63,222 nucleotides of DNA from an uncultured Fibrobacterota bacterium (GTDB lineage: Bacteria > Fibrobacterota > Chitinivibrionia > Chitinivibrionales > FEN-1185), in assembly GCA_963753345.1 (NCBI GenBank), contig CAVWBU010000052.1, positions 1 to 63,222 on the forward strand, in the 5' to 3' direction. The notes under the pieces are model-generated. The model searched no databases and was not told the origin of the DNA. It worked only from the letters and a program-made list of their open reading frames with translations. This document shows, one piece after another, positions 7,093-31,397 of the stretch (within the stretch, counting starts at the first letter, position 1; each line of letters begins with the position of its first letter). Both the position numbers and the translations under genes were made by a program.

Positions 7093-7518
7093 TGGGCGTT
7101 CCCCCGCTTCGCGGGGTCGGTTCTCCTCCGGGCTCGGCTTGTCAGCCTCGTTGCCGGTCCGCCCCTATGCCTGTCGGCGGGGTCGGCCGGCAATCCCGCT
7201 ATGGCGGGACCACTCCGTCGCCCCTAACGCGCGGCAGAAGAAGCCTATTCAGTCTGGTTTTTTATTGCGCCAATCGGAATACTCAGTACAAACCGGAATC
7301 TTTTCCCCAATCCTGCTGTCAACTGCCAACTGTCAACTCTCAACTATTCTTCTTGGTGCCCCCGCAGCGTAGTTTCTGGCTTGCCACCGAACTGTCAAGG
7401 GGGCTACCCAGAGAGGGGAGCGCAGGACCGGCGCGGAATAAGGTGAACGCTGAAAATGTGAGGCTGGGTCGGAGGACGGGGACGACCCTGGAAGTACCCG
7501 ACGGGGTAGACTTCCCCC
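7093..7518 (-). repeat. composite intergenic element, full, minus strand
   Basis: A 7355-7518, heptamer array 7316-7345, C 7265-7280, B 7093-7235. Confidence 0.88.
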
Positions 7519-14615: not shown

Positions 14616-15941
14616 ATGGCATGCAAAGCGATAGTGATCCTCGGCGCGTCCGGAGATTTGACAAAGAAGAAGCTGGTGCCGGCGCTGCACCGGCTGCATG
14701 CGCGCGGCGAGTTGGCCGATTGCATGCTTATCGCCGGCGAGGGCCGCACGGCATTTACCGATGAACAGTTCCGCGCGCGGCTCGGCGTCGAAGACGACTT
14801 CGCCCGGAAGCTCGCGTATCACCAGGGCATAAAGGGGCTCAAGGCATTTCTCGCATCACGGGGGAAATTCACTGGGATCATCTTCTTCTTCGCCCTTCCG
14901 CCCGAGGCGTATGCGACCACGGCGCAGGAACTCGCTCACGAGGGGTTCGGACGCGAGGCATCCATCATCATAGAAAAACCGTTCGGGTGCGACTACGAAT
15001 CGGCCGCAGCGCTCAACCGCAGGCTTCTCTCGTTCTTCGAGGAGTCGCAGATCTTCCGCAACGACCACTACCTTGCCAAGGAAGCGGTGCAGAACATCCT
15101 CGTGTTCCGGTTTGCCAATGCCGTGTTCGGCCCTGTCTGGAACGCCGACTTCGTGGAATCGATCCAGATCAACTCCTGTGAAGAGCGCACGGTGTCGGAG
15201 CGCTCACAGTATTTCGATAAGGCCGGCATCCTCCGTGACATGGTGCAGAACCATCTTATGCAGCTTCTCTGCCTTGTCGCCATGGAGCCCCCGGACTCGC
15301 TTGACGCGGAAGCGATACGCGCGCGGAAAATGGAAGTGCTCCGGGCGCTTGTCGCGCAGGAATGCCGCCGCAGCCAGTACGAAGGTTACCGCAGCGAGAA
15401 GGGCGTCGGGGCCGATTCGAACACAGAGACGTTTGCCGAGCTTTCGCTTGCCATCAACAATGACCGGTGGCGCGGCGTGCCCGTGCACCTTCGCACCGGC
15501 AAGGCGCTCCACCGCACGGGCACGGAGATCGGCATCAGGTTCAAGCGCCTGCCTTCGACCCTGTTCAACCGGTCGGGGCCGCTGCCGAGAAACCTCATCG
15601 TTTTCAACATTCAGCCCGCGCCCGGCATTGTCGTAAAATTGTCAAGCAAAAATCCCGGCACCGATATGCGTCTCACCGACACGCAGTTGACATTCTGCTA
15701 CAACAGTGCGTTCGAGGAAGAGATCCCGGAGGCCTATCAGAAGCTGCTGCTCGACGCCGTGCGCGGCGACCATACGCTGTTCGTCACCTCGGAGGAAACA
15801 GAGCAGTCGTGGCGCGTGCTTGACGGAGTGCTTGACAAAGGCCTGTGCGGGACCTATGCACCAGGAGCCAGGCCGCCCGAGACGTTGCCGGTCGACTGGA
15901 TCGATTTCGACCGCTATGCGTCGGCCTGCGGGCCGGCCTGA
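14616..15941 (+). CDS. zwf: glucose-6-phosphate 1-dehydrogenase
   Basis: GASGDLTKKK, IEKPFG, RNDHYLAKE, RDMVQNHL, LRTGK. Confidence 0.92.
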   Translation: MACKAIVILGASGDLTKKKLVPALHRLHARGELADCMLIAGEGRTAFTDEQFRARLGVEDDFARKLAYHQGIKGLKAFLASRGKFTGIIFFFALPPEAYATTAQELAHEGFGREASIIIEKPFGCDYESAAALNRRLLSFFEESQIFRNDHYLAKEAVQNILVFRFANAVFGPVWNADFVESIQINSCEERTVSERSQYFDKAGILRDMVQNHLMQLLCLVAMEPPDSLDAEAIRARKMEVLRALVAQECRRSQYEGYRSEKGVGADSNTETFAELSLAINNDRWRGVPVHLRTGKALHRTGTEIGIRFKRLPSTLFNRSGPLPRNLIVFNIQPAPGIVVKLSSKNPGTDMRLTDTQLTFCYNSAFEEEIPEAYQKLLLDAVRGDHTLFVTSEETEQSWRVLDGVLDKGLCGTYAPGARPPETLPVDWIDFDRYASACGPA

Positions 15942-15977
15942 GGAACAAACCGAAAACCATCACCAGAGGAGGAATTC

Positions 15978-16472
15978 ATGGGTCTATCGTACAGCGCAGA
16001 CGAAATTTACGAAATAGGAGTCGGCATCGAAAAGAACGGGAAGCGGTTCTATGAGGCGGCGGCAGACACCGCAAAGCAGGGGACGGTAAAGGACTTCTTC
16101 GGCCGTCTTGCCAAATGGGAGCAGAAGCATGTCGAGCTCTTTTCCAGCCTCAAGGCGGGCCTCAAAGGCGACGCTCGCGAGCACCTTTCCTTCGACCCTG
16201 CAAACGAGCTGGCGTTATACCTGCAGGCGGCGGCCGACACGCACATCTTCAAGGCCGGCGCCGATATTCCCGCGCTGGTCGCACGGTGCCCGACCGCGAT
16301 CGACGCGCTGTCGATGGCACTTGCGTTTGAAAAGGATTCGGTGGTGTTGTATTCCACCTTCCTTAATCTCGTCCCCGCGGATCTCGGCAGAAACGACGTG
16401 GAGCGGATCCTGCAGGAAGAGCTCAAGCATGTGACGTACATTACGGATGAGATGAAGAAGTTGACAAAATAG
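15978..16472 (+). CDS. ferritin-like/rubrerythrin family protein
   Basis: IEKNGKRFY, EQKH, FEKDSV, EELKH di-iron motifs. Confidence 0.85.
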   Translation: MGLSYSADEIYEIGVGIEKNGKRFYEAAADTAKQGTVKDFFGRLAKWEQKHVELFSSLKAGLKGDAREHLSFDPANELALYLQAAADTHIFKAGADIPALVARCPTAIDALSMALAFEKDSVVLYSTFLNLVPADLGRNDVERILQEELKHVTYITDEMKKLTK

Positions 16473-16540
16473 ATAATGGTCCGTGAAGAGCAAAACGTTC
16501 CGCACGGCACCCCTCGTTTGCCTTACGAAAGGCAATTCCC

Positions 16541-17119
16541 ATGAACGACGTCCTCGCCCGGATGCACGACCCGCATGTCCTTGCCTGGATATTCATGATT
16601 ATGGCATATGGATTCCTTGAGATCGGCATCGGCCATCTTAAGAAAGGCAAACGTCGTGAAAAAAGGGTGAGGGACATCACATTCTACGCGGTAACGGTGC
16701 CTTCGATGACTGCCATGTGCGCGGCGCTATTTGAGGCGGTGATAGCCGGCCGCGAGTTTCCGGCCGCAGTGTTCTTTACGGGATGCGTCGTACTGTCGGC
16801 AGGAATCATTCTTCGTCTCGCTGCGCTTGTGCAGCTCGGCACAGGGTTTTCCACAAAGGTTGAAAAATTCGAGGGCCAGCAGCTGACCACGACGGGCATG
16901 TACAAGCTGGTGCGTCACCCCCTGTACCTTGCCACGCTTCTGCAGGTTGCCGGATCGGGGATCATGCTCTGTTCTGTCGTCGCACTTGCGCTTTTCCCTT
17001 TGTGCGTTGCAGGAATTTTTGTTCGCATAAGGAAAGAAGAGCGATTCATGACGGCCGAATTCTCCGAATATGCAGACTACGCAAAGAACACCTGGCGTTT
17101 GATTCCGTGGTTGTATTAG
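16541..17119 (+). CDS. isoprenylcysteine carboxyl methyltransferase family membrane protein
   Basis: GMYKLVRHPLY, RIRKEE, YADY..WRLIPWLY. Confidence 0.85.
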   Translation: MNDVLARMHDPHVLAWIFMIMAYGFLEIGIGHLKKGKRREKRVRDITFYAVTVPSMTAMCAALFEAVIAGREFPAAVFFTGCVVLSAGIILRLAALVQLGTGFSTKVEKFEGQQLTTTGMYKLVRHPLYLATLLQVAGSGIMLCSVVALALFPLCVAGIFVRIRKEERFMTAEFSEYADYAKNTWRLIPWLY

Positions 17120-17268
17120 GGAAATGATGATCAATCCCTGCCCTTGTCCCAAGAGAAAATGCGCACGCCATGGCGATTGCGGTCCCTGCCGTGAATATCA
17201 CGCGCAGAAAGGCAAACTGCCGCGATGCGAGAGGAAAAAGATGAGCATTTGGCCATGGGGTGGGGAGA

Positions 17269-17496
17269 AGTTGAATGTTGAAGGTTGAAAGTTGACAGCA
17301 TGAGCAAGAAGCGGATGCTGAGAGCTTCTTTTCTTCCGCGTTAGGGGCGACTGGAAAAACGGTCCCGCTTGAGGCGGGATGCCGCCCGGACCCGGCCCTG
17401 TGGGCCATAGGGCCGTGGCGGCCCGAGGCCGAAGGCCGAGACCGGAAGGAGAACCGACCCGAGTCTGAGCATAGGCGAGGGCGAGGGGAACGCCCA
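17269..17496 (+). repeat. partial composite element (heptamer array + B)
   Basis: GTTGAAA-type array 17269-17297; B 17336-17496. Confidence 0.85.
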
Positions 17497-17526
17497 TTAC
17501 TCTTGATTGGTTCAAATAAGAAAGAC

Positions 17527-18897
17527 ATGAAAGACTCCCTGCCCTCAGTTACATATACCGGCATCATAAAACTCGCCGCGCCGCTTGTTCTTTCCATGAG
17601 CGGCGTGATGATCATGCAGTTCGTGGACGCGCTGTTTCTCTCCTGGTATTCGGCCGACGCCATTGCCGCGGTGGTGCCGGCGGTAATGCCCGCGTTGCTT
17701 CTGTCAAGTGCATTCACGGGAGCGGCGGGCTATACCTCCACGTTTGTTGCTCAGTACACCGGCGCGGGACGTCCGGAGCGCAGCGCGGCGGCCGTGTGGC
17801 AGGGGATTTACTTTTCGGTGCTGTCCGGGGCGTTTCTTGCGCTTGTGTCGCTCGGCGCTCGGCCGCTGTTTGGCTGGGTGGGCCATGCACCGGTGATCCA
17901 GGCGATGGAAGTGCGGTTCTTTTCAATCATGTGCTGGGGCGCATTTTTCTTTGCCGCGGCAAACGCGCTTTCAGGCTTTTTCTCCGGCAGGGGCGCGACG
18001 TCGGTGGTGATGGCAGTAAACATCGCCGGGCTCTGCGCCAACGCCGCGCTCGATTACATATTGATATTCGGGAAATTCGGTTTTCCGAGGCTCGGCATCA
18101 CGGGCGCGGCGCTGGCAACCGTTGCTTCCCAGGCGCTGATCACGCTCGTTTTTGCCGTGCTGTTCCTCAGGCGCGAAAACCGTGTGCACTGGGCGACTTG
18201 GCGTTCGCGTGCCCTTGACATTCCGCTTTTTCTCAGGCTGGTACGGTTCGGGTTTCCCGGCGGCATGCGTTTTTCGCTTGAGATGGCGTCGTGGACCGTG
18301 TTCGTGTTCTTTGTGGGCCGGATTGGGCCCATTGACCTTGCCGCCACCAATATTGCATGGCGCATCAACGGCATTGCGTTTTTTCCCGCCATAGGGATTT
18401 CGCAGGCGGTGGCCATTCTCGTGGGAAATGCGCAGGGCGCGGGGCAGCCGGCGCTGTCGGCAAAAGCCACCTGGCGCGGCACCGCGCTTTCCCAGGTGTG
18501 GATGCTGGTGATGGCCGCGGTCTTCGTGGTCTTCCCCGTGCAATTGTTCGGCATTTTCGCAGGCCGCGACCCGGCTACGGCTGCGCAATTCGCAACCCTG
18601 GGCCCCATGCTCCTGCGGTTCGTGGCGGTCTACTGTCTGCTTGACGCATTAAACTACGTGTTCATCAGCGCGCTTGTTGCCGCGGGTGACACGCGGTGGA
18701 CCCTGTACGCGTCGATCGCGCTCAACGCCGCATTTGTTGCCGCGCTTGCCGCGGCGGACGTATTCTTTCGGACGCTCTTTGCCGAATGGCTCGTCGCAAC
18801 GGTGTTCGTGATGGCACAGGCTCTGTTATGGCTCGCGCGGTTTCTGCAGGGGAAGTGGAAGGGGTTGAGAGTAATTGAGCCGAAGATAGCGGAGTGA
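17527..18897 (+). CDS. MATE family efflux transporter
   Basis: hydrophobic multi-TM profile, LIFGKFGFPRLGITGAALAT, AGDTR. Confidence 0.9.
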   Translation: MKDSLPSVTYTGIIKLAAPLVLSMSGVMIMQFVDALFLSWYSADAIAAVVPAVMPALLLSSAFTGAAGYTSTFVAQYTGAGRPERSAAAVWQGIYFSVLSGAFLALVSLGARPLFGWVGHAPVIQAMEVRFFSIMCWGAFFFAAANALSGFFSGRGATSVVMAVNIAGLCANAALDYILIFGKFGFPRLGITGAALATVASQALITLVFAVLFLRRENRVHWATWRSRALDIPLFLRLVRFGFPGGMRFSLEMASWTVFVFFVGRIGPIDLAATNIAWRINGIAFFPAIGISQAVAILVGNAQGAGQPALSAKATWRGTALSQVWMLVMAAVFVVFPVQLFGIFAGRDPATAAQFATLGPMLLRFVAVYCLLDALNYVFISALVAAGDTRWTLYASIALNAAFVAALAAADVFFRTLFAEWLVATVFVMAQALLWLARFLQGKWKGLRVIEPKIAE

Positions 18898-18933
18898 TGA
18901 GATACTTCGTTGTCAATATAAATAAGTCTTGGT

Positions 18934-19356
18934 GGGGGAAGTTTCCCCCTAGCTGCGGCCCGGACGCGCCGCTTTACAAACTAGCATCCCGGAGGCGCGT
19001 CCAGTCCTCCGCTACCCCTTCCTGGGTGCACCCCAAGTGAATGCAGTTGCAAGAATCAAGCACCTGTGTGGGGGCACCCACGAGGAGCAGTTGAAAAGTT
19101 GAAACGTTGAAAAGTAGAAAATAGAAACAATGAGCTTGACCGGTTTATTGCGAATGCCGATTGGCGCGAGAAGATGCAATTGACTGAATAGAACTCTGTT
19201 GCCGCGCGTTAGGTGGACCGGAGGGGGCGCCAGAGCGCATTGCCGCCTGATCCCTAGCCGAAGGCGATTGGGACAGGCGGCAACGAGGCCGGACGGCCGA
19301 GCCCGCAGGGAGACCGACCCGACCCCGAGCAAAGTCGAGGGGGAGTGGAACGCCCA
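18934..19356 (+). repeat. composite intergenic element, full
   Basis: A 18934-19079, AGTTGAAA array 19089-19127, C about 19150-19168, TTGACT 19180, B 19201-19356. Confidence 0.9.
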
Positions 19357-19408
19357 TCTCCCACTTCCAAGAAATAGAATAGAAATAGTAGTATATTTTC
19401 AAGAGTCC

Positions 19409-19984
19409 ATGGAACCATCATTCCCCGATCTTGGACCCGATTCCGCTGCGCAGGAGCACATCGGCCGCCTTGCTGATGGCGCCGTGCTGCTGGCGCGTGA
19501 TCTGCTCTCCGATCCCAATTTTTCCGCCGCGGTGGTGCTCATGTGCATTTACGCAAAGGAAAGCGGCGCCTACGGCCTTGTGCTCAACAGACCGTCGCAC
19601 ATGCCCCTGTCCGAGGTGTTCGACGGGTTTTCGGACATGGGCGACAGGCGCGAGCTTTACATCGGCGGACCGGTCGAGCAGGAGGAACTGCAGATCCTCG
19701 AGATCGCCGACGCGGGCCGCGACCAGTCACATCAGGTGGCGCCCAGGGTGTTTCTCGGGGGAAAATGGGAGAGCGTCGAGGAGATGCTTCTTGTCGAGCC
19801 TGATTCGACGCGCCTGTTTCTCGGGTATTCGGGCTGGGCGCCGGGCCAGCTCGAAAACGAAATAGCGGCCGGGGCGTGGGACGTGTTCCGGGTGGACGTG
19901 GAAAAACTGTTGATGAACTCCGGAAAGATGCTCACCGCAGATGTAAAGGCTATTGGTGAATTTTTAGATACTATAAAGTTGTAA
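19409..19984 (+). CDS. YqgE/AlgH family protein
   Basis: DPNF..VVL, GLVLNRP, YIGGPV, FLGYSGWAPGQLENEI. Confidence 0.9.
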   Translation: MEPSFPDLGPDSAAQEHIGRLADGAVLLARDLLSDPNFSAAVVLMCIYAKESGAYGLVLNRPSHMPLSEVFDGFSDMGDRRELYIGGPVEQEELQILEIADAGRDQSHQVAPRVFLGGKWESVEEMLLVEPDSTRLFLGYSGWAPGQLENEIAAGAWDVFRVDVEKLLMNSGKMLTADVKAIGEFLDTIKL

Positions 19985-19998
19985 GAAGTATAAAAGAT

Positions 19999-20174
19999 TG
20001 GGCGCCCCGCCGCGCTGACGCGCGTCGGCGGCCCTCCCTTCCGGTCCACCCCTTCGGGTGCTTCCAAGGGTCGTCGGCCTTTGGCCTCGGGCCGCCACGG
20101 CCCTATGGCCCACAGGGCCGGGTCCGGGCGGCATCCCGCTCCAGCGGGACCTCCAGTCCGGCCTGGCGCGTGGC
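19999..20174 (-). repeat. module B' copy (GCGCC/GGCGC subtype)
   Basis: minus strand reads GCCACGCGCCAGGCCGGACTGGAGG...CGGCGGGGCGCCCA. Confidence 0.85.
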
Positions 20175-20264
20175 AACAGAAATCTTTCGCAGTCGTCACA
20201 TCTGACTGATTGGAGTGCATGTGCATTGTTTCAAGCGAATGCTACAACGCGCAAGTACTACAAC

Positions 20265-20451
20265 TTGACAGAATGGATTCCCGTATTCGCGCGTTAGGTG
20301 GACTGGAGGGTGAGCTAGAGTGAATTGCCGGCCGACCCCGGCCGAAGGCCATCGGGGCGGTCCGGCAACGAGGCGAACAGCCGAGCCCGGAAGGAGACCG
20401 ACCCCATGGAGAGGCACACAGCCGTGCGCCTCTCCATGGGGGGAACGCCCA
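20265..20451 (+). repeat. TTGACA + module B copy
   Basis: TTGACA 20265; CGCGCGTTAGGTGGACTGGAGG...GGGGAACGCCCA. Confidence 0.85.
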
Positions 20452-20466
20452 AGTCTTTTCTTTATT

Positions 20467-22491
20467 TCAAAAGATCATCGTTATAAACGAATGAGCTGGA
20501 ATCGACGGCTTTACAATCTGCGACCCGAGCTTGAGTTTGAAATTCACCGCTGCCGCGCCGCGGTTCATCACCACAACCACGATAGTTCCGTTGGCGTTCA
20601 GAAAGGCAGTCGACTCCAGCGTTGATGCGGTGCTCGTGAATCCGACCCGCATTGCGCCCGGCCGCACATACCTGCTGAAATGCGCGATGGTGTAGTAGTG
20701 CGGGTTGACAAAATAAGTTTTCTGCGCTTGGTTGGTCATGATCGGCGCGTTGCCGACGCTGCCCGTCCAGCCCGGCCCGCCGTTTTCGTCCACGCACAGA
20801 TTCCATTCGTTCCAGCCGTTGCTCCAGTGGTTCATGTCGCCGATAAGGTCGTGGCCTTCGCGCTCGGCCTGACCCCAGTCCACTTTGTAACTTCCGTCGG
20901 CGTTGTAGCCTTTGAAGGGCTCGGCCACTTCTGTTTCGACAAGAAGTTTGGAGGCATAGCTGTTGTGAAAGGCCGTGAGACTGTCGAACATGTCTCCCGA
21001 ATACCAGTGATACGCCGCGCCCAGCGCATATTTTCCGGCCGCCGTATCGCCGATGATGGTGTTTCCCCAGGCGTTGAGCAGGTCCTTGTTGTGGTCCCAT
21101 ATCATCACTTTCACTTTGTTAAGCAGCCCTTCGGCCTGCAATTGGGGGCCCAGGTTGTCGTGCAGCAGGGTCCGCTCCTGCTGGGCAGTGTAGGTGCACG
21201 AGGGATACCAGGGTGAATCGAACGCAGGCTCGTTCTGCATGGTGATGGCCCAGATATCGACGCCGTTCCGGTTCATCTCCTCCACGTATTTGCACAGGTA
21301 AAGGCCGAACGCGGCGTAGCAGTTGGAAAGCAGGGTGCCGTGGAGCCAGTTGTTGGTGGACTTCATCCACGGCGGGGGACTCCACGGCGCGGCGAAAATC
21401 TTTATGTCGGCGCCGGGGACCGATTTTGCCTGCTGGATCATGGGTATCATCCACTGCTGATCGTGAACAATGGAAAAATCGTTGAGGCTGAAATCGTTGG
21501 CGGTGTTATCGTAGAAGTACGGGGCCACCGAGAAATCGCTGGAGCCTATCTGCGTGCGGCCCATGGTGAATCCCGCGCCGGTGTACGGGTTGAAGAACAG
21601 ATCCATGATTTCCTTGCGCGGCCCCGGTCCTATGTTGCTCATGCAGTAAACGGCCGCCTCGGTGAACGCCGCGCCGAACCCGAGAATCGTCTGGTACTTC
21701 TGCGATGTGTCAACAGTAATCGTGGGCATGGCGGAGCCGTCGTCTGCGGCAAACGCAAGCGCGGGTTTTAGCGCGAGTCTGTCGCCTGCCTGCGAGGTCT
21801 GGACAACCACGGCCTGACCGTCGGGCACGGTCCTGCTCAGCACGAAATCGTACACGCCGGTGTAGCTGTCTATGGAGAGGCTGGCCGTGGTGTAGCCGAC
21901 CGATCCGGCAAGCATCGAATCGACTAAAGCTGCGATTTTGTCAAGTGCGGCAGTCCGGCTTCCCGCAGGCTGCGAAAATCCGGTGCACGGTTTTGCCCCG
22001 TTCGTGAACGGCATGGGAATCACCGTTGCGGCGAAACCCACGGCGGCCTTCAGGAAGTAAACCTGCGAGGACAGCGGCACCTGCGCTCCGGCAAGAAGGG
22101 AAATCCGGTATTCGCCCTTGGAAAGGTCCCTGTCGAGAAGCGATGCTGCGAGCCTGCCGTGGCAGTCGAAGAGTTCCAGACGGACGCGTTCCCGTGCATT
22201 GACAACCGAAAACCGCAGCACGCCGTTGGCAAGGGTGATCCGGCCTGTGGCGCACGGCGAGGACGAAGATGGGTGAAGGACCGCCGTAGACCCGGAAACT
22301 ATGGCATACACGCCCGTTGAGTCGGTGACCGCCGACTTCCCGGCCGACACAATGCTTACCATGGCGCCGGCAAGCGGTTTGCCTGCTGCGTTCTTGACAG
22401 TGCCGGTGATGTTGATCTGTTGGCCGAACAGGGAGGAACTGCAGGCAAGAAAACAGAAAAAGACGATTGCAAAGCGCCGCAAAGTCGGCAT
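20467..22491 (-). CDS. secreted glycoside hydrolase family 30 with N-terminal beta-sandwich domains
   Basis: signal peptide, GFGAAFTE, IGSSDFS, APWSPPPWMK, ITMQNEP, YHWY, LVETE, WNEWNL. Confidence 0.88.
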   Translation of the reverse strand: MPTLRRFAIVFFCFLACSSSLFGQQINITGTVKNAAGKPLAGAMVSIVSAGKSAVTDSTGVYAIVSGSTAVLHPSSSSPCATGRITLANGVLRFSVVNARERVRLELFDCHGRLAASLLDRDLSKGEYRISLLAGAQVPLSSQVYFLKAAVGFAATVIPMPFTNGAKPCTGFSQPAGSRTAALDKIAALVDSMLAGSVGYTTASLSIDSYTGVYDFVLSRTVPDGQAVVVQTSQAGDRLALKPALAFAADDGSAMPTITVDTSQKYQTILGFGAAFTEAAVYCMSNIGPGPRKEIMDLFFNPYTGAGFTMGRTQIGSSDFSVAPYFYDNTANDFSLNDFSIVHDQQWMIPMIQQAKSVPGADIKIFAAPWSPPPWMKSTNNWLHGTLLSNCYAAFGLYLCKYVEEMNRNGVDIWAITMQNEPAFDSPWYPSCTYTAQQERTLLHDNLGPQLQAEGLLNKVKVMIWDHNKDLLNAWGNTIIGDTAAGKYALGAAYHWYSGDMFDSLTAFHNSYASKLLVETEVAEPFKGYNADGSYKVDWGQAEREGHDLIGDMNHWSNGWNEWNLCVDENGGPGWTGSVGNAPIMTNQAQKTYFVNPHYYTIAHFSRYVRPGAMRVGFTSTASTLESTAFLNANGTIVVVVMNRGAAAVNFKLKLGSQIVKPSIPAHSFITMIF

Positions 22492-22623
22492 AACTCCTCC
22501 TTCCCCCTCACCATACCATAATTTAGGACCTTCTGGGCGGCATGGCCAGGCTTTTTTCGAGTGTTTGGAACGGATACAAGATAAGTTATGAATTGGTTGC
22601 AGTAAAAAACCAAGGAAAAAGCT

Positions 22624-22802
22624 TTGACTGAATAGAATTCCGTTACTGTGCGTTAGGGGCGACTGGAGGTCCCGCTAGAGCGGGATGCTGCCCGGACCCG
22701 GCCCTGTGGGCCATAGGGCCGTGGCGGCCCGAGGCTGAAGGCCGAGACCGGAAGGAGAACCGACCCGAGCCTCAGTTTTGACGTAGGCGAGGGGAACGCC
22801 CA
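22624..22802 (+). repeat. TTGACT + module B copy
   Basis: TTGACT 22624; B 22645-22802. Confidence 0.85.
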
Positions 22803-23299
22803 GGTCTTCTCTTTGTATTTACTTTTCGCTTTCTTTCTCTTCTTTGCACCAGCGACGTCACCCTCGGATAAAACCCCCACTGCTCGTAGAACTTGAACGC
22901 CGACTCGTTGCCGACCGCAACGTTGACGGACGCCGATTTCACCTTCTTCCTTCCGAACCAGTTCAGCATCCGCTTGACAAGCGAACTGCCGACGCCACGG
23001 CGGCGAAAAGACTCGTCGACATACATCGACTCGATTTCGGCATGGCCGCGGCTGTTGATGACCGCGACACAGTATCCAACGCATCGTCTTCCGGCGGCAC
23101 TCTCCGCGAGCGCGATGCGCAGCGAGCCTGCGGCCGCCTTTTCCAGCAGATCGGCCCTCCGGCCGGGCCAGCGCATGGTTTGAAACTCGCCGCTGAAATG
23201 GACGGAAATGCCCGCATGATGGCGGGTGAGCTTTCGCCACAACGGCGCGATTGTTTCGAGAAGCGGGGCGCCGCCTTCGATGATACGGAAATTCGTCAT
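22772..23299 (-). CDS. GNAT family N-acetyltransferase
   Basis: EIESMYVDESFRRRGVG, NESAFKFYEQWGF; stop codon lies inside module B. Confidence 0.85.
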   Translation of the reverse strand: MTNFRIIEGGAPLLETIAPLWRKLTRHHAGISVHFSGEFQTMRWPGRRADLLEKAAAGSLRIALAESAAGRRCVGYCVAVINSRGHAEIESMYVDESFRRRGVGSSLVKRMLNWFGRKKVKSASVNVAVGNESAFKFYEQWGFYPRVTSLVQRRERKRKVNTKRRPGRSPRLRQN

Positions 23300-23541
23300 G
23301 GTTGTTTGCCTGGTTGAGGAAGAATCACCACGATGACACAAAGGAAACCGGGAAAAACAATGAGTTACTTAGAAAGATAATGAAGAAATATACTATCGAC
23401 CGATGAATGACGATAAAGAGCGTTATTGCCATCCGCTGTTGCCTATCACTATATTCAGAATACTTATCCAACCATAAACAACTGACACCATTCACCCATA
23501 GCACCTAACCTTCGGTGCACTTCATACGGAAGGAGACGCCC

Positions 23542-24510
23542 ATGAACTACCGTCCCTTCGGAAAAACCAACTGGCAGGTGAGCGAAATCGGCTGCGGCAT
23601 GTGGGGGCTGGCCGACTGGACCGGCTCCAGCGACGCGGAATCCGACGAGGCGCTCGACTGCGCTGTGGAAAACGGATGTAATTTTTTCGACACCGCCTGG
23701 GCCTACGGCAAGGGAAAAAGCGAAAGGATTCTCGCACGGCTCATCAAGCGGCACCCGGAGAAGAAACTCTACGTCGCGACGAAAATTCCGCCCAAGAACC
23801 TCAAGTGGCCATCCAAGGCCGACTACGCTCTCGATGATTGCTTTCCGCCCGAACACATCATCGAATACGCGGAGAAAAGCCTGAAGAACCTCGAAGTTCC
23901 GATAGACCTCTTGCAGTTTCACGTGTGGGAAGACGGATGGGCGCGCGACCACCGGTGGCAGGACGCGGTCGCGCGGCTTAAACGCCAGGGCAAGATCAAG
24001 GCGGTGGGGGTGTCCGTCAACAGGTGGGAGCCCGACAACTGCCTCGAAACGATTCAGACAGGGATTGTGGACTGTGTCCAGGTGATTTACAACATTTTCG
24101 ACCAGGCGCCCGAGGACCGGCTGCTGCCGGTGTGCAGGGCATACGGCACCGCCGTGATCGCGCGCGTGCCGTTCGACGAGGGCACGCTTGCGGGCGCGGT
24201 GACGCGAACCACCACATTCCCGGCGAATGATTGGCGCTCAAGCTACTTTGTTCAGGAAAATTTTGAGCCGAGCATGGACCGCGTGGACCGGCTCAGGCAG
24301 ATCCTGCCTCAGGGGATGACCCTGCCGGAAATGGCGCTCAGGTTCATCCTGAGCAATCCGATCGTGTCCACCACGATCCCGGGCATGCGCAGAAAAGGCC
24401 ACGTGCTTTCGAACATCGCCGCGTCTCAGGCCGGGCCGCTTGACAATGCGCTTCTTGCCGAGCTGAAACAGCACAGGTGGGACCGGCAGCCGGCGTGGTG
24501 GTCGCAGTAA
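23542..24510 (+). CDS. aldo/keto reductase
   Basis: VSEIGCGMW, FFDTAWAYG, VATK, IDLLQFH, IPGMR. Confidence 0.92.
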   Translation: MNYRPFGKTNWQVSEIGCGMWGLADWTGSSDAESDEALDCAVENGCNFFDTAWAYGKGKSERILARLIKRHPEKKLYVATKIPPKNLKWPSKADYALDDCFPPEHIIEYAEKSLKNLEVPIDLLQFHVWEDGWARDHRWQDAVARLKRQGKIKAVGVSVNRWEPDNCLETIQTGIVDCVQVIYNIFDQAPEDRLLPVCRAYGTAVIARVPFDEGTLAGAVTRTTTFPANDWRSSYFVQENFEPSMDRVDRLRQILPQGMTLPEMALRFILSNPIVSTTIPGMRRKGHVLSNIAASQAGPLDNALLAELKQHRWDRQPAWWSQ

Positions 24511-24600
24511 AAGAGTTCAAAGTTGAAAGTTGCAAGTTGAAAGCAAGATAGCGGAAAACAGAAAAAATCCCGGACTTTGAACTTTCAACTTTGAACTCTT
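24511..24600. repeat. 21-bp inverted repeat built from heptamer arrays
   Basis: AAGAGTTCAAAGTTGAAAGTT (24511-24531) and its exact reverse complement (24580-24600). Confidence 0.85.
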
Positions 24601-24806
24601 GCATTTATTCCAGCCACACCATCCGGGAGTGGTGGCCTGTTCATTTATGTGAAGTAATTCGGTGTGCCACGATCATCCTTGATCGTATTCTTCTGTTCAT
24701 CCTCCAAATCCCTACTGCGATCCTTGAAAACCAAACCGCAGGTAATCCGCCCTCTCAGCAGCTCAAACATCTTGGGGAATAATCAGTAGACAATTCTATC
24801 TTATCT

Positions 24807-24898
24807 GTCAACTACCAACCGTCAACTGTCAACTCTTCTTTTTCAACTCTTCACTCTTAACTCTCAACTCTGAACTCTCAACTTTCAACTTGTAACTT
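24807..24898. repeat. degenerate heptamer tandem array (TCAACTC-like)
   Basis: about a dozen imperfect units, overlapping the 3' end of the minus-strand ORF. Confidence 0.8.
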
Positions 24899-25386
24899 GC
24901 CAAAGCTCCGGCCCTCGAATTCTCCATCATCACCACCCTCGACTGCGCCTTCCAGGCCTTGAACGGATTGAAATGCCTGAACGTCTCGATCAGGTACACC
25001 GAGCGCCCCACGCCGGCGATCACCAGGAAGATGCACACGATGCCGAGCCAGAGAAGCGTCCTGCCGCGCCGAATTGCCCTTGATCCGTCGACTACCTTTG
25101 TGTCGTGGATCACCTTCTGGCCCGGATAGGGCATACGCTTTGAGCGAATGATCCTCCTGCCCACGACGATCAGATAGATGGACGGCCCGACAAGCGGGAC
25201 AAGCAGGCAGATTATGGTTATTTCCGACGCGGTCATCAGGTCCTGAAAGCCGACCCGATTCACATAGGCAAAATACGGTGGAAGGCCGAAGTAGAGGACA
25301 AGGCCAAGCGCGGCGAGGCACACGAGATAAACGGTAAAGAGCCGTTGCCGGTACGGTTTATCGGTTCTGACGATTTCGGGTTCCAT
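24829..25386 (-). CDS. hypothetical membrane protein
   Basis: three hydrophobic segments, RMPYPGQKVIHDT; start MEPEIV after AAGGA. Confidence 0.6.
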   Translation of the reverse strand: MEPEIVRTDKPYRQRLFTVYLVCLAALGLVLYFGLPPYFAYVNRVGFQDLMTASEITIICLLVPLVGPSIYLIVVGRRIIRSKRMPYPGQKVIHDTKVVDGSRAIRRGRTLLWLGIVCIFLVIAGVGRSVYLIETFRHFNPFKAWKAQSRVVMMENSRAGALASYKLKVESSELRVKSEELKKKS

Positions 25387-25418
25387 GCGTTCCTTTGTGG
25401 TTTTCGGCCGGGGTTTCG

Positions 25419-27338
25419 CTACAATCGCGCCAGTATCTTCCGTATTGCGGCTTTCATTCGCAGTGTTCTCGAAATGGTTTCCTTGACAAAAGCATCCCCC
25501 GACGCCGCACCATGAGCCATATCGTAATCGTCGATAATGCGCCGGCCCCGCGCGTCGTCCTTTTCCTTTGCCGAAAGTGTCCCGGCCGCGATGGTGTCGA
25601 GCATGCCGAGAAGCCGCTCGCAGTTTTCCCTTATGCTGCGGGAGGTGAAGCCTTCTCTTGAGAGCATGGCGCGCTGGTGTTCCCACAGAGGGTCGGCCGT
25701 TGCCCTGCCATATATCGACAACGCTGATCCTTTGGAAGCAAGCCGGGAAACAAGCCCGCGCAGACAATAATATTCTATGAAGAAGTTGTACGTGTCAATG
25801 CCTTTCCGGCGGTTCTGCTCGGTGATGAAGTTCTGGCCGGCGCCGGGAATGTGCGATTCGTCGTACCAGGGTCGGGTCTCGGTTACCAGGGCGAGGCGGT
25901 CGCGTCCGTGAAGGAGCAGGTCGATGATGCCGGGGGAGAACGTTTCAAACGAGAATGAGGACCGCGTTGCCCTGTTGCGCTTCTCGAACTTTGCCTCGTT
26001 TCTGAGGACCATGTACAGGTTGTCGGACAAAACCCATCCCGGAAACAGCTCGTTCTGGGAGGGCCGGGCGCCTTCGGGGCGGTGGGCGGGAATGTTGATA
26101 AGCGAGAATGGGAATTCGAGCCTCTGCGGGGGCGTGGTGACGCCGGTGGCGATCACGGTGTACGGCGCGCGGGAAAAATCAGCCGGATACTTCACGTTGA
26201 CCCCGAGCCCAAGAAACATCCCCTCCCCGCACCAAAGCTCTTGATCGGGCGCACGCGAGGTGTGGTTGGAACCCACGTTCGCGCCGCTGGCGACATTTCC
26301 CTTTCCTTGGGGCCACAGAACGCCGATGAGCATCGACTGATGATGGAGGCCCACAAACGGCCCGACGAGGCTTGCGGTCACCTCGCCCTGGGCGATCTGC
26401 GTGTTGGGCCCGACAATGCTGTTCGTCACCTTCGCATGCTTTTCCGCGGAGGAGTGCTCGGCAAACACCGAGTGTTCGACAATTGCCATGGAAGAAACCG
26501 TGCAGCCCCATTGCAGGCACGAGTTCCTCACGATTGCGCCATCCTCCACACGAGTTTCGCCTGGCGCCGAGCACAGCATTGTGGCGTTTTCCACAAGCGC
26601 GGCGCCGCTGACCATGCAGCCCGGCCCAAGAAACGCGTCGACAACCCTGGCCGAGCACCGGACAATAGCGCCCGCGCCGACGACGCTGAACGGCAGGGAG
26701 CAGCCTCGCGCGTAGTTCTTGACAAAGCGCGCATATTCACCGAGAAACGACCGGTCGCCGCGACGCAGGGCTGCTTCGCGCGCGACGGGAACCGAAAGTT
26801 CGGCATACACGGGGATGTCGCGGCCGCCGGTCTCAATCCCCACCTGAACAACGGTTCCGTTGCCGAAAGCGGTCGTGCCGCTGCACGCAAGCTCTCCCAC
26901 GGAAAAGACCACTGCACCGGCGGCGATGACGCAGCGCGACACAACGGAATTGCACACCAGGCTGTCGTTTCCGATTTCCGAATCGATGATCGTGCTTTTG
27001 TAAATGCCGCAGGGGAGCGCGAGTCCGGCGTCCACCTTGACCGCACGCTTGGAAAACGAGCCGATTATGCAGGAACCTGAAAATGTTGAATGGAATATTG
27101 CGGACGGATTGAAGCCGCGTGCGACGCGGATCTTTCGCCAATCGGCGCAGGTGTTGCCGCGCGCCTCAAGGTGCGAGATTTCTTTGGCGGTGAGCGGCCG
27201 CGTCGACCTTCCGAACAGGCGGCTGGCCGTGGGGTGAGCGCGCAAGGAGGCCGCGGCTAAGAGGAATTCCGAAGAGTCAAGCAGCGGGCCGATTAGGGAT
27301 TTGAGGTCTCGGGTCATGGTGCTCCGGGCTTGCGGCAT
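25419..27338 (-). CDS. DUF4954 family protein (beta-helix repeats)
   Basis: LEARGNTCADW, ETGGRDI, GPFVGLHHQS, GANVGSNHTSRAPDQE. Confidence 0.75.
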   Translation of the reverse strand: MPQARSTMTRDLKSLIGPLLDSSEFLLAAASLRAHPTASRLFGRSTRPLTAKEISHLEARGNTCADWRKIRVARGFNPSAIFHSTFSGSCIIGSFSKRAVKVDAGLALPCGIYKSTIIDSEIGNDSLVCNSVVSRCVIAAGAVVFSVGELACSGTTAFGNGTVVQVGIETGGRDIPVYAELSVPVAREAALRRGDRSFLGEYARFVKNYARGCSLPFSVVGAGAIVRCSARVVDAFLGPGCMVSGAALVENATMLCSAPGETRVEDGAIVRNSCLQWGCTVSSMAIVEHSVFAEHSSAEKHAKVTNSIVGPNTQIAQGEVTASLVGPFVGLHHQSMLIGVLWPQGKGNVASGANVGSNHTSRAPDQELWCGEGMFLGLGVNVKYPADFSRAPYTVIATGVTTPPQRLEFPFSLINIPAHRPEGARPSQNELFPGWVLSDNLYMVLRNEAKFEKRNRATRSSFSFETFSPGIIDLLLHGRDRLALVTETRPWYDESHIPGAGQNFITEQNRRKGIDTYNFFIEYYCLRGLVSRLASKGSALSIYGRATADPLWEHQRAMLSREGFTSRSIRENCERLLGMLDTIAAGTLSAKEKDDARGRRIIDDYDMAHGAASGDAFVKETISRTLRMKAAIRKILARL

Positions 27339-27502
27339 GCCAATCTAATGCTGGAAACGGAATGCGTGTAGAGTTTCATCATGGAAATTATCACAATCCG
27401 CCGACAAATGCAAGCATGAGATTACACAATGCCCGGCAACGGGCGCGCACCCCAATTTTGCCGTTCCCGCAAACAGGGTGCCTAGTATATTTAACGGCAG
27501 CC

Positions 27503-28666
27503 ATGCCTCAAACCTTCGACATCATCATAATCGGCGCAGGGCCGGCGGGCCTGAGCGCGGCGCTTGCAGCGCTTGCGGCAAAGCCGAAGCCGTCGGTGCT
27601 GCTGGTTGACCGGGTCGCGCCGTGGGAAAAACCCATTGCCTGCGCCGAAGGCGTGTGGACCGATCAGCTTTATGCGGCGCTTGACGTGAAACCGGAATGG
27701 GTGCGGTTCAAGATAAGCAAGCTGGTGCTTTGTTCCGCCGACGGATCGAGAGTCACCCATTTCGCAAAGGAGGCGGGCTGCATCATCAACAGGCAACTGA
27801 TGCAGCGCGACTTGGCCGGGCAGTGCAAAGCGCTCGGCGCTGAGATGCGGCTCAACGCGTGCGTGGCTGGCATCGCGCCGGAATCGGGTTCGCTCCGCGG
27901 CGTGCGATTTGCCGACGGGACCGTAGTGTCGGGCCGCACCGTGATCGATGCTTCCGGCCCGATCGCGGGGTTCGGGAAAAATGAGAATATCGCCTGGAAA
28001 CCGCCCGATCTGGAACCTGCGTATTTTGTCATAGCGGAAAACGCCGGCATTGCCGCGGACGAAATCCATGTCCATCTTGGTGGCAGCGTTGCGCCGGGCG
28101 GCTATGTTTGGGCGTTTCCCCGCGAAAACAACGGCGCAAACATCGGGCTGGTGCTGGGTGCTTCATACCGCGGGAAGGTTGACATAAGAAAACTTCTCGC
28201 TTCGTTTCTCGCGTCAAACTTTCCCGACGCGACCGTAAAGGGGCGCCATGCGGGCGCGATCCCCTGCGGCGGGAAGCAGCTGCCGATCGCGGTGAGCAGA
28301 CTGGCGAAGGCGGGCGACGCGGCGAGCATGGTCAACCCGTTTTCGCGAGCGGGCATCATGGAGGCCGTGATAAGCGGGACGCTGGCCGGCCTCTGCGCGT
28401 GCGAGATGCTTGCCGCAGGATCACCGGAAAAAATGCGCGCCGCATGCAGAGGCTATGAGAAGCGCTGGCTCAAGGCCCTGGGGAAAAAGCAGGAGAGGCT
28501 GGCGCGGGCAAAGGACGCGCTCTTCAAGATACCCGACGCAGATTACAACGCGGCGTTCGCTGCGCTGTCGAAGATTCCTCCTGACAAGCGCTCCATTACA
28601 AAAATCATCGGCTTGAGTTTGGGCAGGTTCCCGCGCCTCGCGTTCGCCATGCGGCACCTGATTTAA
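27503..28666 (+). CDS. geranylgeranyl reductase family FAD-dependent oxidoreductase
   Basis: IIIGAGPAG, CAEG, APGGYVWAFP, AGDAASMVNP. Confidence 0.85.
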   Translation: MPQTFDIIIIGAGPAGLSAALAALAAKPKPSVLLVDRVAPWEKPIACAEGVWTDQLYAALDVKPEWVRFKISKLVLCSADGSRVTHFAKEAGCIINRQLMQRDLAGQCKALGAEMRLNACVAGIAPESGSLRGVRFADGTVVSGRTVIDASGPIAGFGKNENIAWKPPDLEPAYFVIAENAGIAADEIHVHLGGSVAPGGYVWAFPRENNGANIGLVLGASYRGKVDIRKLLASFLASNFPDATVKGRHAGAIPCGGKQLPIAVSRLAKAGDAASMVNPFSRAGIMEAVISGTLAGLCACEMLAAGSPEKMRAACRGYEKRWLKALGKKQERLARAKDALFKIPDADYNAAFAALSKIPPDKRSITKIIGLSLGRFPRLAFAMRHLI

Positions 28667-28790
28667 GAAACCTGTCTTCGTGGACGACAGTGGCACACGT
28701 TTTTTGATTTCCGGTCAAACAGGGTACTCGTGCGCTGTTGCACCATGACCAAAATAAAAATTGGAGCCTTTCCTGTCGGCTATCGTTTCT

Positions 28791-28932
28791 GCGTGCCCCC
28801 GCAGCGATGCTTCGGGCTTGCCACTGATTTGTCAAGGGGGCTACGCAGGAGGGGGTAGCGGAGGACCGGCGCGGAATAAGGTGAACTTTGAGAATACGAG
28901 CGCCGGGCCGGAGCGAGGGGGAGCCTTCCCCC
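28791..28932 (-). repeat. solo module A copy
   Basis: minus strand reads GGGGGAAGGCTCCCCCT...CTGCGTAGCCCCC...TGCGGGGGCACGC. Confidence 0.85.
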
Positions 28933-28969
28933 ACATGAAGATTTGTTTTATTGACAAGTATGAATTTAT

Positions 28970-29932
28970 TTAAGCTTCGTCCTCCGCCCTCATCCTCTCG
29001 TAAAACTTGACAAACGTGTCTTTGCCTGTTCCCGCCCTCTGGCCGTCCACGAAGCTCATGGCGTCCTGCGGATGAAGATTGAGCATTCCCGAAACCATGT
29101 AGGGAATGTTATATCCCCATTCCATTTCCGCGCGCAGCGGCAAGATGGTGGTTTCGATCACGTCAAGGATGGGCCTGATGTTGAACTTGGGGTTCTTGAG
29201 GAACCCCATGAGGAGTTCGAGCGGGCAATTGCCTGCCGCGCGGCCGAGGCCGTAAAGCGTGCCGTCAAGATAATTGGCGTTTTTGATGATCCCTTCGATG
29301 GTGTTGGCGAATCCGAGCTGCATCTGGTTGTGGCAGTGTATGCCGATTTCCTTGGTGCGCAGGTAGCGCTGGAATTTGTGGACAAGGTAGTCGATGTCTT
29401 CGCTGTACAGTGACCCGAAGCTGTCGACGATGTAACACGCCGTGATTGACGTCTCGGACTCGATCTGCTGCAGGGCCTCGTCGAGGTCGCGCTCAAGCAC
29501 ATGCGAAATGGCCATGATGTTGATGGTGGCTTCGTATCCTTTTTTCGTCGCGTTGTTTGCAAGCGCGATCGCCTTGTCAACGTCTTTGACGTAGGTGGCG
29601 ACGCGGACCATGTCGACCACGCTTTCCGATTTGGGGATGACGTCGTCGCCGGTGGCCTTGTGCGCGTCCTGCATGATCGCTATCTTGGCGGTCTTGGTTA
29701 CGCCTTCGGTGGCCTTCCTGAGCATGTCCTCTTCGCAGAACCGCCATGCCCCGTACTTGCCGGGCGAGAAGTGCTCCTTGCTGTTGCGGTATCCCAGCTC
29801 GATGATATCGACGCCTGCCTGGCTGCAGGCCGAGTAGATGTTTCGCACGGTCTCGAGCGTGAATTTCGAGTTGTTCATCAATCCGCCGTCGCGGATCGTG
29901 CAGTCGCAGACTTTGATTTGTGGCCGGAACAT
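28970..29932 (-). CDS. HMGL-like (DRE-TIM) aldolase catalytic domain protein
   Basis: DCTIRDGG, IVDSFG, GIHCHN, GLGRAAGN. Confidence 0.85.
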   Translation of the reverse strand: MFRPQIKVCDCTIRDGGLMNNSKFTLETVRNIYSACSQAGVDIIELGYRNSKEHFSPGKYGAWRFCEEDMLRKATEGVTKTAKIAIMQDAHKATGDDVIPKSESVVDMVRVATYVKDVDKAIALANNATKKGYEATINIMAISHVLERDLDEALQQIESETSITACYIVDSFGSLYSEDIDYLVHKFQRYLRTKEIGIHCHNQMQLGFANTIEGIIKNANYLDGTLYGLGRAAGNCPLELLMGFLKNPKFNIRPILDVIETTILPLRAEMEWGYNIPYMVSGMLNLHPQDAMSFVDGQRAGTGKDTFVKFYERMRAEDEA

Positions 29933-30176
29933 AGACCGATCCTGGTATGGTTGAGGTGCTTCTTCGCAAATGCAAAGAGCTGAAAATAGTTCTTTCCCGA
30001 GGCGCAGGCGACGTTGTTATGCACAGGATGATTAAATACGGAGGCCGCTACGCCGTATTGTTGATTTCGGGCCGTTACGCGGAGCCATGTTCTTTTTCGC
30101 AGGTGCCGAAGCCCCCGGAACCTTGCTGGGGGGTATTCAATTATTTTATACACTCATTTATAGCAGGGGAATACCC

Positions 30177-31061: not shown

Positions 31062-31367
31062 CCCCCCTAGCGAGTTGATGTGAGAGATAGAAACTTTTAC
31101 TGCGGGGGCACCGATAGGAATTGTGGATTGATGATTGCGGATTGCGGATTGAAGAATGAAGAGTCTCTAACAGATTGCCTTGAAATTCAGGATGGCGAAA
31201 AGTTAAGCTTGACTAATGATATTTCTTATGCCGCGCGTTAGGGGCGACGGAGGGTGCGCTAGAGCGCATTGCCGGCTGACCCCGCCGAAGGCATAGGGGC
31301 GGTCCGGCAACGAGGCGAATAGCCGAGCCCGGAGGAGAACCGACCCCGCGAAGCGGGGGAACGCCCA
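30986..31367 (+). repeat. composite intergenic element, full
   Basis: A 30986-31112, GATTGCG array 31119-31158, TTGACT 31209, B 31230-31367. Confidence 0.9.
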
Positions 31368-31397
31368 CTTTTTTAATACGAGGAGAATAGAACTATC

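Follow-up and report, generated by a model that had tools for sequence, protein, structure and literature searches.

What is module B, the multi-branched repeat at positions 19201-19356 of a 63,222-nucleotide stretch of Fibrobacterota DNA (the window, by which we mean the whole of that stretch), and what is being conserved in it? The first-pass annotation, made from the letters of the window, proposed selection on a folded RNA or single-stranded DNA (ssDNA) with a conserved junction core. Our work agrees that a folded single strand with such a core is under selection: its pairs covary across families and into a second order, the two ends of the element are linked, the two strands differ, and the closing helix exists in 13 fully paired versions. 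We propose that module B represents a previously undescribed family of strand-specific, recombining, non-autonomous structured intergenic repeats of the Fibrobacterota whose fold would be made in RNA, a reading drawn from sequence to which we give about an even chance of being right.

The genome to which the window belongs (G000, from an uncultured member of the Chitinivibrionales) is a 94% complete draft of 4,516,072 bases in 55 contigs, with 55.9% G+C. Iterated nhmmer searches of its contigs at an E-value of ≤1e-5 grew from 176 to 385 and then 395 matches, 161 of which cover the profile end to end; the copy at 19201-19356 is one of 14 in the window and of about 395 in G000. The unit length ranges from 73 to 251 nt with a median of 144 nt, a typical element measures 120 to 250 nt, and module B alone occupies about 1.4% of the genome (395 copies of about 165 nt), more if its partner modules are included. 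All 14 copies named in the first-pass annotation were found where it had placed them, by nhmmer, in the sequences, and in the alignment. Its closing helix (P1) was recovered as well, with GCGTT/AACGC in 10 of the 14 copies and GCGCC/GGCGC in 4, and RNAalifold finds this helix unaided (UA in 10 and CG in 4 copies at both variable pairs). Among the 384 G000 matches that begin at the 5' end of the profile, 363 could be anchored at both ends; 230 of these have GCGTT/AACGC, 102 have GCGCC/GGCGC, and 31 have other combinations, which are in part wobble intermediates and in part wrong 3' sites taken by the regular expression. Rfam 15 gave no match at gathering score in the whole window and none in five module B loci of another order, and when the E-value was relaxed to ≤5 for 17250-20500, a segment with four copies, the top model overlapping a copy was c-di-GMP-II-GAG, whose 19.9 bits fall short of its gathering score of 40. 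A full-text literature search brought up no such repeat in Fibrobacterota in the titles and opening abstract lines of the articles returned.

A covariance model was built from the 14 window copies and used to align 138 copies, taken from the window and 20 further regions of G000. In the modelled fold (Table 1), P1, one unpaired A, and a second helix, P2, clamp a four-way junction that holds hairpins H1, H2, and H3 and is lined by the junction strands J1 and J2; P1, P2, and a variable last hairpin form a three-way junction, with the CCA tail on the 3' side. The A after P1 is present and unpaired in all 34 copies of a second alignment of distant copies (7 genomes, other families), and the CC directly after P1 is invariant. 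The consensus of J1 is GGAC-N-GGAGG and that of J2 is CC-N-GGA(A)GGAG. Both sides change at four of six H1 pairs and five of eight H2 pairs in the 138-copy alignment and at all three H3 pairs in the alignment of distant copies. Tandem G.A steps between Watson-Crick pairs occur in H3, in many of the last hairpins, and in one form of H1.

The alignment bears out two more of the earlier observations, the alternation of hairpins 1 and 2 between paired forms, to which it adds a fourth H1 form (TGAGC/GCGAA, with tandem G.A), and the conservation of the purine-rich linkers. The second helix as first drawn was mis-registered: GGTGG and GGGGCG had both been matched to the identical 3' letters CCGACCC, and two 5' words set against one 3' word are not covariation. 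The helix that does covary at this place, P2, has 3 bp and joins the three bases past GCGYY-A to the triplet preceding the conserved GAC. It takes the forms GGU/ACC, GGC/GCC, GCC/GGC, GGG/CCC, and GCU/AGC; GGG with ACC gives a G.A mismatch. Other pairings were tried and dropped. A pairing of J1 with J2 is unsupported, as two positions show C.C in 32 and A.C in 9 of the 138 copies. An outer helix between leader and trailer (P0) is unsupported, with a duplex energy of -4.09 versus -3.99 ± 0.12 for shuffled partners, and so is a pairing of J1 with module A, a second structured repeat that often lies upstream (-15.7 versus -15.9 ± 0.2 shuffled).

Would the same pattern arise if no fold were selected and the covariation merely recorded a few sub-families of a G+C-rich repeat? 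Inside G000, P1 has two states only, fully linked to the base of the adjoining hairpin, which would suit such a history, and two features of the counts would flatter a fold, as the alignments were fitted to the model and relatedness inflates shuffle tests. Nevertheless, we find this explanation scarcely credible. In the 138 G000 copies, under the structure with P2 re-registered, 97.0% of cells pair, compared with 85.2% after shuffling (none of 500 shuffles reached the observed value) and 34 to 53% when partners are slid by 1 to 3 columns, and both sides change at 16 of 29 pairs. In the 34 distant copies, 94.6% of cells pair (65.5% shuffled, 33 to 46% slid), both sides change at 24 of 28 pairs, and P1 covaries at four of its five pairs. 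P1 occurs there in 11 fully Watson-Crick versions, two G.U forms, and one mismatched copy. The commonest is GCGTT/AACGC, in 14 of the 34 copies; the others are GCGCC/GGCGC, GCGCA/TGCGC, GCACG/CGTGC, GCCTT/AAGGC, GGGTT/AACCC, GTGTT/AACAC, GCGAT/ATCGC, GCGTA/TACGC, GCATT/AATGC, and GCGTG/CACGC. Congeners alone add GCGCG/CGCGC and GCGCT/AGCGC, which brings the fully paired versions to 13. A single ancestral split, the objection that the first-pass annotation had raised against itself, fails on this number. Also, the interior of the element reassorts while its ends match, and mismatched end combinations are few, the 31 of 363 given above being in part artefacts of the regular expression.

This reassortment is visible within a single genome. 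The 138 G000 copies contain 81 haplotypes of the nine variable pairs. For the variable base in the 5' strand of P1, Cramer's V is 0.08 to 0.33 with H1, 0.17 to 0.35 with H2, and 0.10 with H3, and it is 0.93 to 0.95 with two features over 110 nt away, the 3' strand of P1 and the base of the last hairpin. That hairpin base and the type of P1 are fully linked (TA with CG in 89 copies, CG with GC in 42). Since the ends are linked and the interior is not, either mismatched ends have been selected away or only inner cassettes are exchanged, and both indicate a fold.

Copies are also shortened and replaced. Mini-copies arise via deletion between internal repeats, from J1 to J2. We compared the spacers around five window copies with the corresponding sites in G002, G004, and G005, whose genes are 72 to 79% identical, and the sole shared site was the head-to-head pair after an AlgH-like gene, in G004 only; one copy common to G002 and G004 is missing from G000. 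In the closer G001 (genes 82 to 91% identical), the spacer adjoining a GH30 gene has a module B at the matching site and with unchanged orientation, and there it is of another sub-type in P1, H1, H2, and the last hairpin, between flanking genes that are 90 to 91% identical. Copies are thus overwritten or exchanged more quickly than the sequence around them changes. Both P1 types were found in three related metagenome-assembled genomes (MAGs), a sample biased by the pattern used to fetch it, and a comparison of similarity within and between genomes found no genome-specific clustering of copies. No empty site came to light: all six leaders without a called module B had truncated or mini-copies or met a contig end, and metagenome contigs from four runs (15000-34000) break at the repeats, with chimeric joints between copies, 20 to 40 times more summed depth at repeat bins, and no clean empty site. 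Separately, split profile matches revealed three copies with the H1/H2 part swapped for a same-sized (about 97 nt) unrelated insert, at C26 149441-149677, C31 13527-13749, and C35 68051-68304.

Which strand folds, and is it RNA? G.U wobbles outnumber A.C in the helices by 230 to 18, which indicates that one strand folds, and this is the written strand; two H1 positions, at which U-A and C-G occur as well, account for 188 of the 230 G.U. The minimum-energy fold of 19201-19356 has -76 kcal/mol (z, -2.60; 2 of 200 shuffles fold equally well), compared with -71.2 (z, -1.28) for the opposite strand. A census of the loops in minimum-energy folds, with GNRA in 92 of 676 tetraloops, UNCG in 1, and GAA, GCA, or GGA in 283 of 467 triloops, does not separate RNA from DNA. 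A look for RNA runs covering 17000-23000 found none listed. Module B probably acts as RNA rather than ssDNA.

We consider it unlikely, though worth serious thought, that module B folds as ssDNA and is the recognition substrate in trans of a transposase or recombinase, as in REP/REPIN-RAYT or IS200/IS605-like systems, with its structure kept for copying. Such an element would be expected to have a single folding strand, high copy numbers that are patchy among congeners, and a near-random orientation to genes, all of which module B has. Its head-to-head doublets at fixed spacing recall those of REPINs, and GAA and GCA triloops prevail among its loops, with GCGAAGC, known to form a mini-hairpin of great stability in DNA, as one of them. 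The enzymes and the strand bias tell another story. Y1_Tnp (PF01797) has no match in G000 or G003, 8 in G002, and 2 each in G004 and G005, so that its presence does not follow that of the repeat; in five genomes including G000, nothing matches the TnpB zinc-ribbon domain (PF07282). IS200/IS605 elements are strongly strand-biased, and the orientation of module B relative to GC skew (143 with the G-rich strand versus 98, or 59%) is the same as that of genes (58%). For the same reason, a bias toward one replication strand was rejected for module B itself, as its orientation is no more skewed than that of genes. Moreover, a four-way plus a three-way junction with purine strands kept phylum-wide goes far beyond known ssDNA transposon ends. 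Reverse transcriptase (PF00078) has no match in G000 or G005, and neither group II nor other Rfam introns match in the window. As G000 is a 94% complete draft, multi-copy enzyme genes may have been missed.

The family extends across the phylum. Of 41 relatives, 15 have a match to the model of module B, as do 30 of 151 genomes drawn from across the phylum (E-value, ≤1e-4). Four of five congeners carry at least 69 scored copies each, and G003, which belongs to the same genus and is 99% complete, has neither module B nor module A. In the second order, Fibrobacter-like genomes have 1 to 6 copies each, next to genes with the Fibrobacter succinogenes major domain. In G082, G054, and G087, module B begins 5 to 45 nt past the stop codon of Fib_succ_major genes, in the same orientation (loci L147, L159, L161, and L164), once as two copies in tandem. 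A pattern scan of genome contigs drew 64 of 66 loci, among the matches listed, from three MAGs of Fibrobacterota/Chitinivibrionales; the single alphaproteobacterial locus among them has no match to the model. Viral contigs gave no match to the 3'-end pattern of module B.

Where copies stand relative to genes bears on what they might do. Gene context was taken from our own crude codon-usage caller (3,078 genes), and the counts are approximate. Only one of the 395 copies lies inside a gene. The gene upstream is co-oriented in 241 and opposed in 142 cases, the gene downstream in 199 and 191, and 69 copies are antisense to both neighbours and yet intact. When the 3' end of a copy faces the end of a convergent gene, the median distance is 28 to 33 nt, and 25 of 28 two-copy spacers are head to head, with a gap of 103 to 139 nt. 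A role as intrinsic terminator was rejected, one terminator-like 3' end (copy 17327-17509) being found among the five copies in 17000-23500; the T run begins 5 to 8 nt past P1 and not after a hairpin, and the weak orientation bias likewise disfavours this role.

Intact antisense copies would make sense if each unit were a small RNA (sRNA) gene, with a promoter in the leader and a T-rich end, that releases a free, trans-acting module B RNA, for example to titrate a protein. In this genus, some 50 to 100 nt of leader are conserved in sequence although they lie outside the fold, as computed upstream of 379 and 350 anchored copies. The trailer is rich in T, which makes up 65% of positions +5 to +9 and 54% of positions +10 to +14 downstream of 350 copies. 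The head-to-head pairs with their centre of 103 to 139 nt resemble divergent promoters, and there are several conserved GGA motifs to which a protein might bind. We nonetheless hold this explanation to be distinctly unlikely. The leaders have no sigma-70-type site and a box spacing unlike that of tRNA-gene promoters, the T run does not follow a hairpin, and the leader differs in other families of the order, which carry other modules in its place. To our knowledge, a single sRNA encoded by some 400 genes would be unprecedented. The obvious GGA binder, CsrA, is absent from the high-copy G000 and G002 and present in the copy-free G003; with no match to PF02599 in the former two and one each in G003, G004, and G022, the idea of a CsrA sponge was rejected.

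The end of the fold raises a different possibility, that module B is a tRNA-like element derived from tRNA-Val in which P1 plus CCA mimics an acceptor stem and is handled by RNase P, the CCA-adding enzyme, and perhaps valyl-tRNA synthetase, as an intergenic processing signal or a copying handle. GCGTT...AACGC-CC-A is identical, letter for letter, to the tRNA-Val(TAC) of G000 over pairs 3-70 to 7-66 and C71, C72, and A73. This gene reads GGGCGTT...AACGCCCA and sits at 22738-22812 of contig C6 (locus L005 18605-18679). The 3' ends of the three tRNA-Val genes of G000 are AACGCCCA, ATCGCCCA, and TGCGCCCA (contigs C6, C7, and C16), the first being identical to most 3' ends of module B. Among 53 tRNAs called by ARAGORN, GCG occupies positions 3 to 5 in just four, the three tRNA-Val genes and one tRNA-Phe (TGGCGCT), and the tRNA-Val genes alone have the ending CGCCCA in addition. 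G022, G012, G033, and G018 share this tRNA-Val stem, the matching P1 is the commonest among the distant copies, and two rarer P1 variants, GCGAT/ATCGC and GCGTA/TACGC, are identical or similar to the stems of the remaining tRNA-Val genes. The succession of P1, one A, a helix of 3 to 4 bp, and eventually a hairpin and P1 again parallels that of acceptor, linker, D stem, and eventually T arm and acceptor; P2 reads GCT(C)/(G)AGC in the copies of G033, and the invariant CC after P1 fits too.

The rest of module B does not look like a tRNA. RF00005 is unmatched on four copies even at an E-value of ≤5, and ARAGORN calls no tRNA on the contig of the window (C52) and so none at the 14 window copies. 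Module B has neither T-loop nor anticodon arm, its linker has one base instead of two, and the positions corresponding to 1-72 and 2-71 are unpaired in most lineages. P1 departs from the tRNA in G100 (tRNA GCGAT, element GCGTG) and in G022, and a match of 8 plus 5 letters may be chance in G+C-rich sequence, at rough odds of 1 in 100 to 1 in 1000. We therefore rate derivation from tRNA-Val as improbable, and equally improbable its wider form, in which module B would be the bacterial counterpart of a tRNA-derived short interspersed element (SINE), a tRNA-Val-like RNA whose ends are processed by tRNA-maturation enzymes and which would act as RNA "punctuation" or give an RNA-based copying process its handle. 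The likeness to tRNA-Val and tRNA-derived SINEs, to the valine-accepting tRNA-like structures of viruses, and to transfer-messenger RNA lies in the acceptor-like end and the order of elements; the missing T-loop and anticodon arm, the failure of the Rfam tRNA model and ARAGORN to recognise the element, and the lack of a reverse transcriptase match in G000 set module B apart.

Invariant junction letters beside freely varying stems, in a multi-copy repeat that behaves like a mobile element, as hammerhead and twister repeats do, might also point to a self-cleaving ribozyme or another catalytic RNA riding on a mobile repeat. We regard this as very improbable. No Rfam ribozyme matched at gathering score or at an E-value of ≤5, the spacers of the three-way junction (1, 2 to 3, and 0 to 1 nt) do not fit the hammerhead core, and a cleavage-site signature could not be defined.

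How, then, does module B compare with known repeat systems? Like REP, BIME, and REPIN sequences with their RAYT, it stands at gene ends in hundreds of copies, folds as a single strand, forms inverted doublets at fixed spacing, is patchily amplified among relatives, and is non-autonomous. REPs are simple hairpins of 20 to 40 nt, whereas module B is a multi-branch fold of 120 to 250 nt with at least four hairpins, junction strands, and covariation across a phylum, and no RAYT was found in G000. BOX of Streptococcus pneumoniae and ERIC/IRU of enterobacteria are intergenic repeats of transcribed type, about 100 to 200 nt long, whose predicted folds are stable and whose modules differ in number. 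Module B is similarly modular, with exchangeable hairpin slots and partner modules, but it has no sequence relation to these long imperfect hairpins, being a closed four-way plus three-way junction that covaries across families. With the omega RNAs of HEARO/IscB and IS605-orfB/TnpB, which were initially known as orphan repeats, it shares a complex conserved fold and many copies per genome; it differs from them in having no Rfam match, no link to TnpB (five genomes), and no variable guide-like flank, since its 3' side is T-rich and its 5' side is a conserved leader. [quoted passage not shown] Terminal inverted repeats and target duplications are the defining features of MITEs, whereas a scan of one copy of module B (18900-19420) showed no clear terminal inverted repeat of the unit, but internal hairpins and only one weak 15-nt pair, 73% identical, flanking the whole composite.

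We hypothesize that the fold of module B is made in RNA and that the fold rather than the letters is under selection. The element would be a non-autonomous repeat that amplification has brought to hundreds of copies in some lineages, with few or none in others, and its hairpins would be swapped between copies by ectopic recombination, with every helix staying paired. In its likeliest role, it would give neighbouring transcripts a stable, structured RNA module at their ends or act as a platform for a junction-recognising protein. A number of observations weigh against this proposal. The pattern GCGTT-N90-120-AACGC is not rarer than chance (3 matches versus 5.75 expected), and the minimum-energy fold of the single copy at 19201-19356 does not contain the closing helix; significance therefore rests on the alignment of the family, and the alignments behind the pair counts, being fitted to the model, favour pairing. 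The fold is strand-specific, but its orientation to genes is weakly biased. G.T wobbles, tandem G.A, and GNA triloops are stable in ssDNA too, so that sequence alone is no proof of RNA. The unit ends carry no canonical promoter or terminator, no sigma-70 site was found at the leaders, and the TTGAC and TAGAAT-like boxes of the leader are 3 nt apart, unlike the TTGACA-17-TATTTT before tRNA genes of G000. A mobilising enzyme was not found in G000, target duplications could not be read, and the spread of copies is deduced from copy number and turnover only.

The family is unusual: the dispersed structured repeats known from bacteria are, with few exceptions, simple hairpins restricted to one genus or family, and module B is a closed multi-junction fold with invariant junction letters, backed by compensatory changes across a phylum. 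A fold of this complexity normally implies a specific molecular partner, and other orphan multi-copy RNAs later proved to be parts of new machineries, as with HEARO and IscB. The family amounts to a natural experiment in which hairpin cassettes are shuffled and long-range pairing is kept. The copy-free G003 offers, together with its congeners, a natural comparison for finding a linked gene, and the low-copy carriers among the Fibrobacter-like genomes, which include cultured species, make bench work possible.

Table 1. Parts of the module B copy at 19201-19356, its flanks, and the remaining copies in the window
Positions	Strand	Feature	Basis
18935-19125	+	Upstream partners of the 19201 copy: module A to ~19085, 8-bp tandem array 19086-19122	Repeat search
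19150-19205	+	Conserved 5' leader: TGGCGC 19162-19167, TTGAC 19180-19184, TAGAAC 19189-19194, GCCGC just before the fold	Column conservation
19206-19210	+	P1, 5' strand GCGTT of closing helix, 5 bp	Pairs with 19349-19353, covaries
19211-19214	+	Unpaired A 19211, then P2 5' strand GGT 19212-19214	Pairs with ACC 19313-19315, covaries
19215-19224	+	Junction strand J1, GGACCGGAGG, purine-rich, conserved	Alignments
19225-19240	+	Hairpin H1, GGGCGC CAGA GCGCAT; opens with G.U, one G.A mismatch in this copy	Read off sequence
19241-19282	+	Hairpin H2, long arm, inner GCC-GAA-GGC tip	In minimum-energy fold
19284-19301	+	Hairpin H3, C-GA-GGCC GGAC GGCC-GA-G, tandem G.A near base	Read off sequence
19302-19312	+	Junction strand J2, CCCGCAGGGAG, purine-rich; in most copies almost a direct repeat of J1	Alignments
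19313-19318	+	P2 3' strand ACC 19313-19315, then conserved GAC 19316-19318	Covariation
19319-19348	+	Variable last hairpin, two tandem G.A steps in this copy	Read off sequence; base covaries
19349-19356	+	P1 3' strand AACGC 19349-19353, then tail CCA 19354-19356	Covariation
19357-19376	+	Pyrimidine/T-rich trailer	Composition downstream of copies
5449-5556	+	B copy, internal deletion	65.5 bits
7080-7241	-	B copy	Model match
17327-17509	+	B copy	Model match
19986-20180	-	B copy, GCGCC/GGCGC type; left half of head-to-head pair	Model match
20280-20464	+	B copy; right half of head-to-head pair	Model match
22639-22815	+	B copy; other sub-type at same site in closer congener G001	Model match
31224-31380	+	B copy	Model match
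33415-33590	+	B copy	Model match
40416-40621	-	B copy with extra hairpin; left half of head-to-head pair	Model match
40723-40882	+	B copy, GCGCC/GGCGC type	Model match
46514-46677	+	B copy	Model match
51162-51324	-	B copy, GCGCC/GGCGC type	Model match
55078-55240	-	B copy, GCGCC/GGCGC type	Model match

Module B often travels with partners. Module A lies 0 to 450 nt upstream on the same strand (typically 90 to 250 nt) in 174 of 350 copies, and 71 of the 350 have an array of 8-bp repeats between the two modules. G002, G004, and G005 have module A, whereas G003 and G022 lack it. Module A is itself a structured repeat with about 275 copies in G000, 174 of them just upstream of a same-strand module B, and its sites in the window are 18935-19085, 5266-5374, 31063-31114, and, on the reverse complement, 7350-7418 and 28787-28855. 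It reaches further 5' than first seen, with a GGGGGA-AGTA-TCCCCC hairpin followed by a long GGGTG(G/C)CCCCC ... GGGGG(G)CACCC arm. A function as dedicated promoter module was rejected, since a lone module A is followed by a co-oriented gene in 48 of 80 cases; cassettes of the order module A, gene, module B number 27. The tandem 8-bp unit (GTTGAAAA / GTTGAGAA) is found at 19086-19122, 5331-5383, and 46363-46454 and, as reverse complement, at 7316-7345 and 24575-24897. Arrays of at least three units number 115 in G000 by a loose regular expression, and 79 of these lie within 450 nt upstream of a same-strand module B.

Other observations concern the tRNA genes of G000 and the remainder of the window. 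Several tRNA genes are preceded by TTGACA, 17 to 18 nt, and then TATTTT, TATCTT, or TAATTT, and a TATTTT-like box stands 10 to 30 nt ahead of many mature tRNA 5' ends (both read by eye). At 3206-3699, a 247-nt unit is duplicated in tandem in perfect register, with 99% identity. On the plus strand at 35536-39042, an open frame of 1,168 amino acids joins the beta-subunit domains CdhC and ACS_CODH_B_C to CdhD (delta subunit) and an N-terminal domain resembling CODH alpha; if the frame is real, this acetyl-CoA synthase/carbon monoxide dehydrogenase protein would be an unusual fusion.

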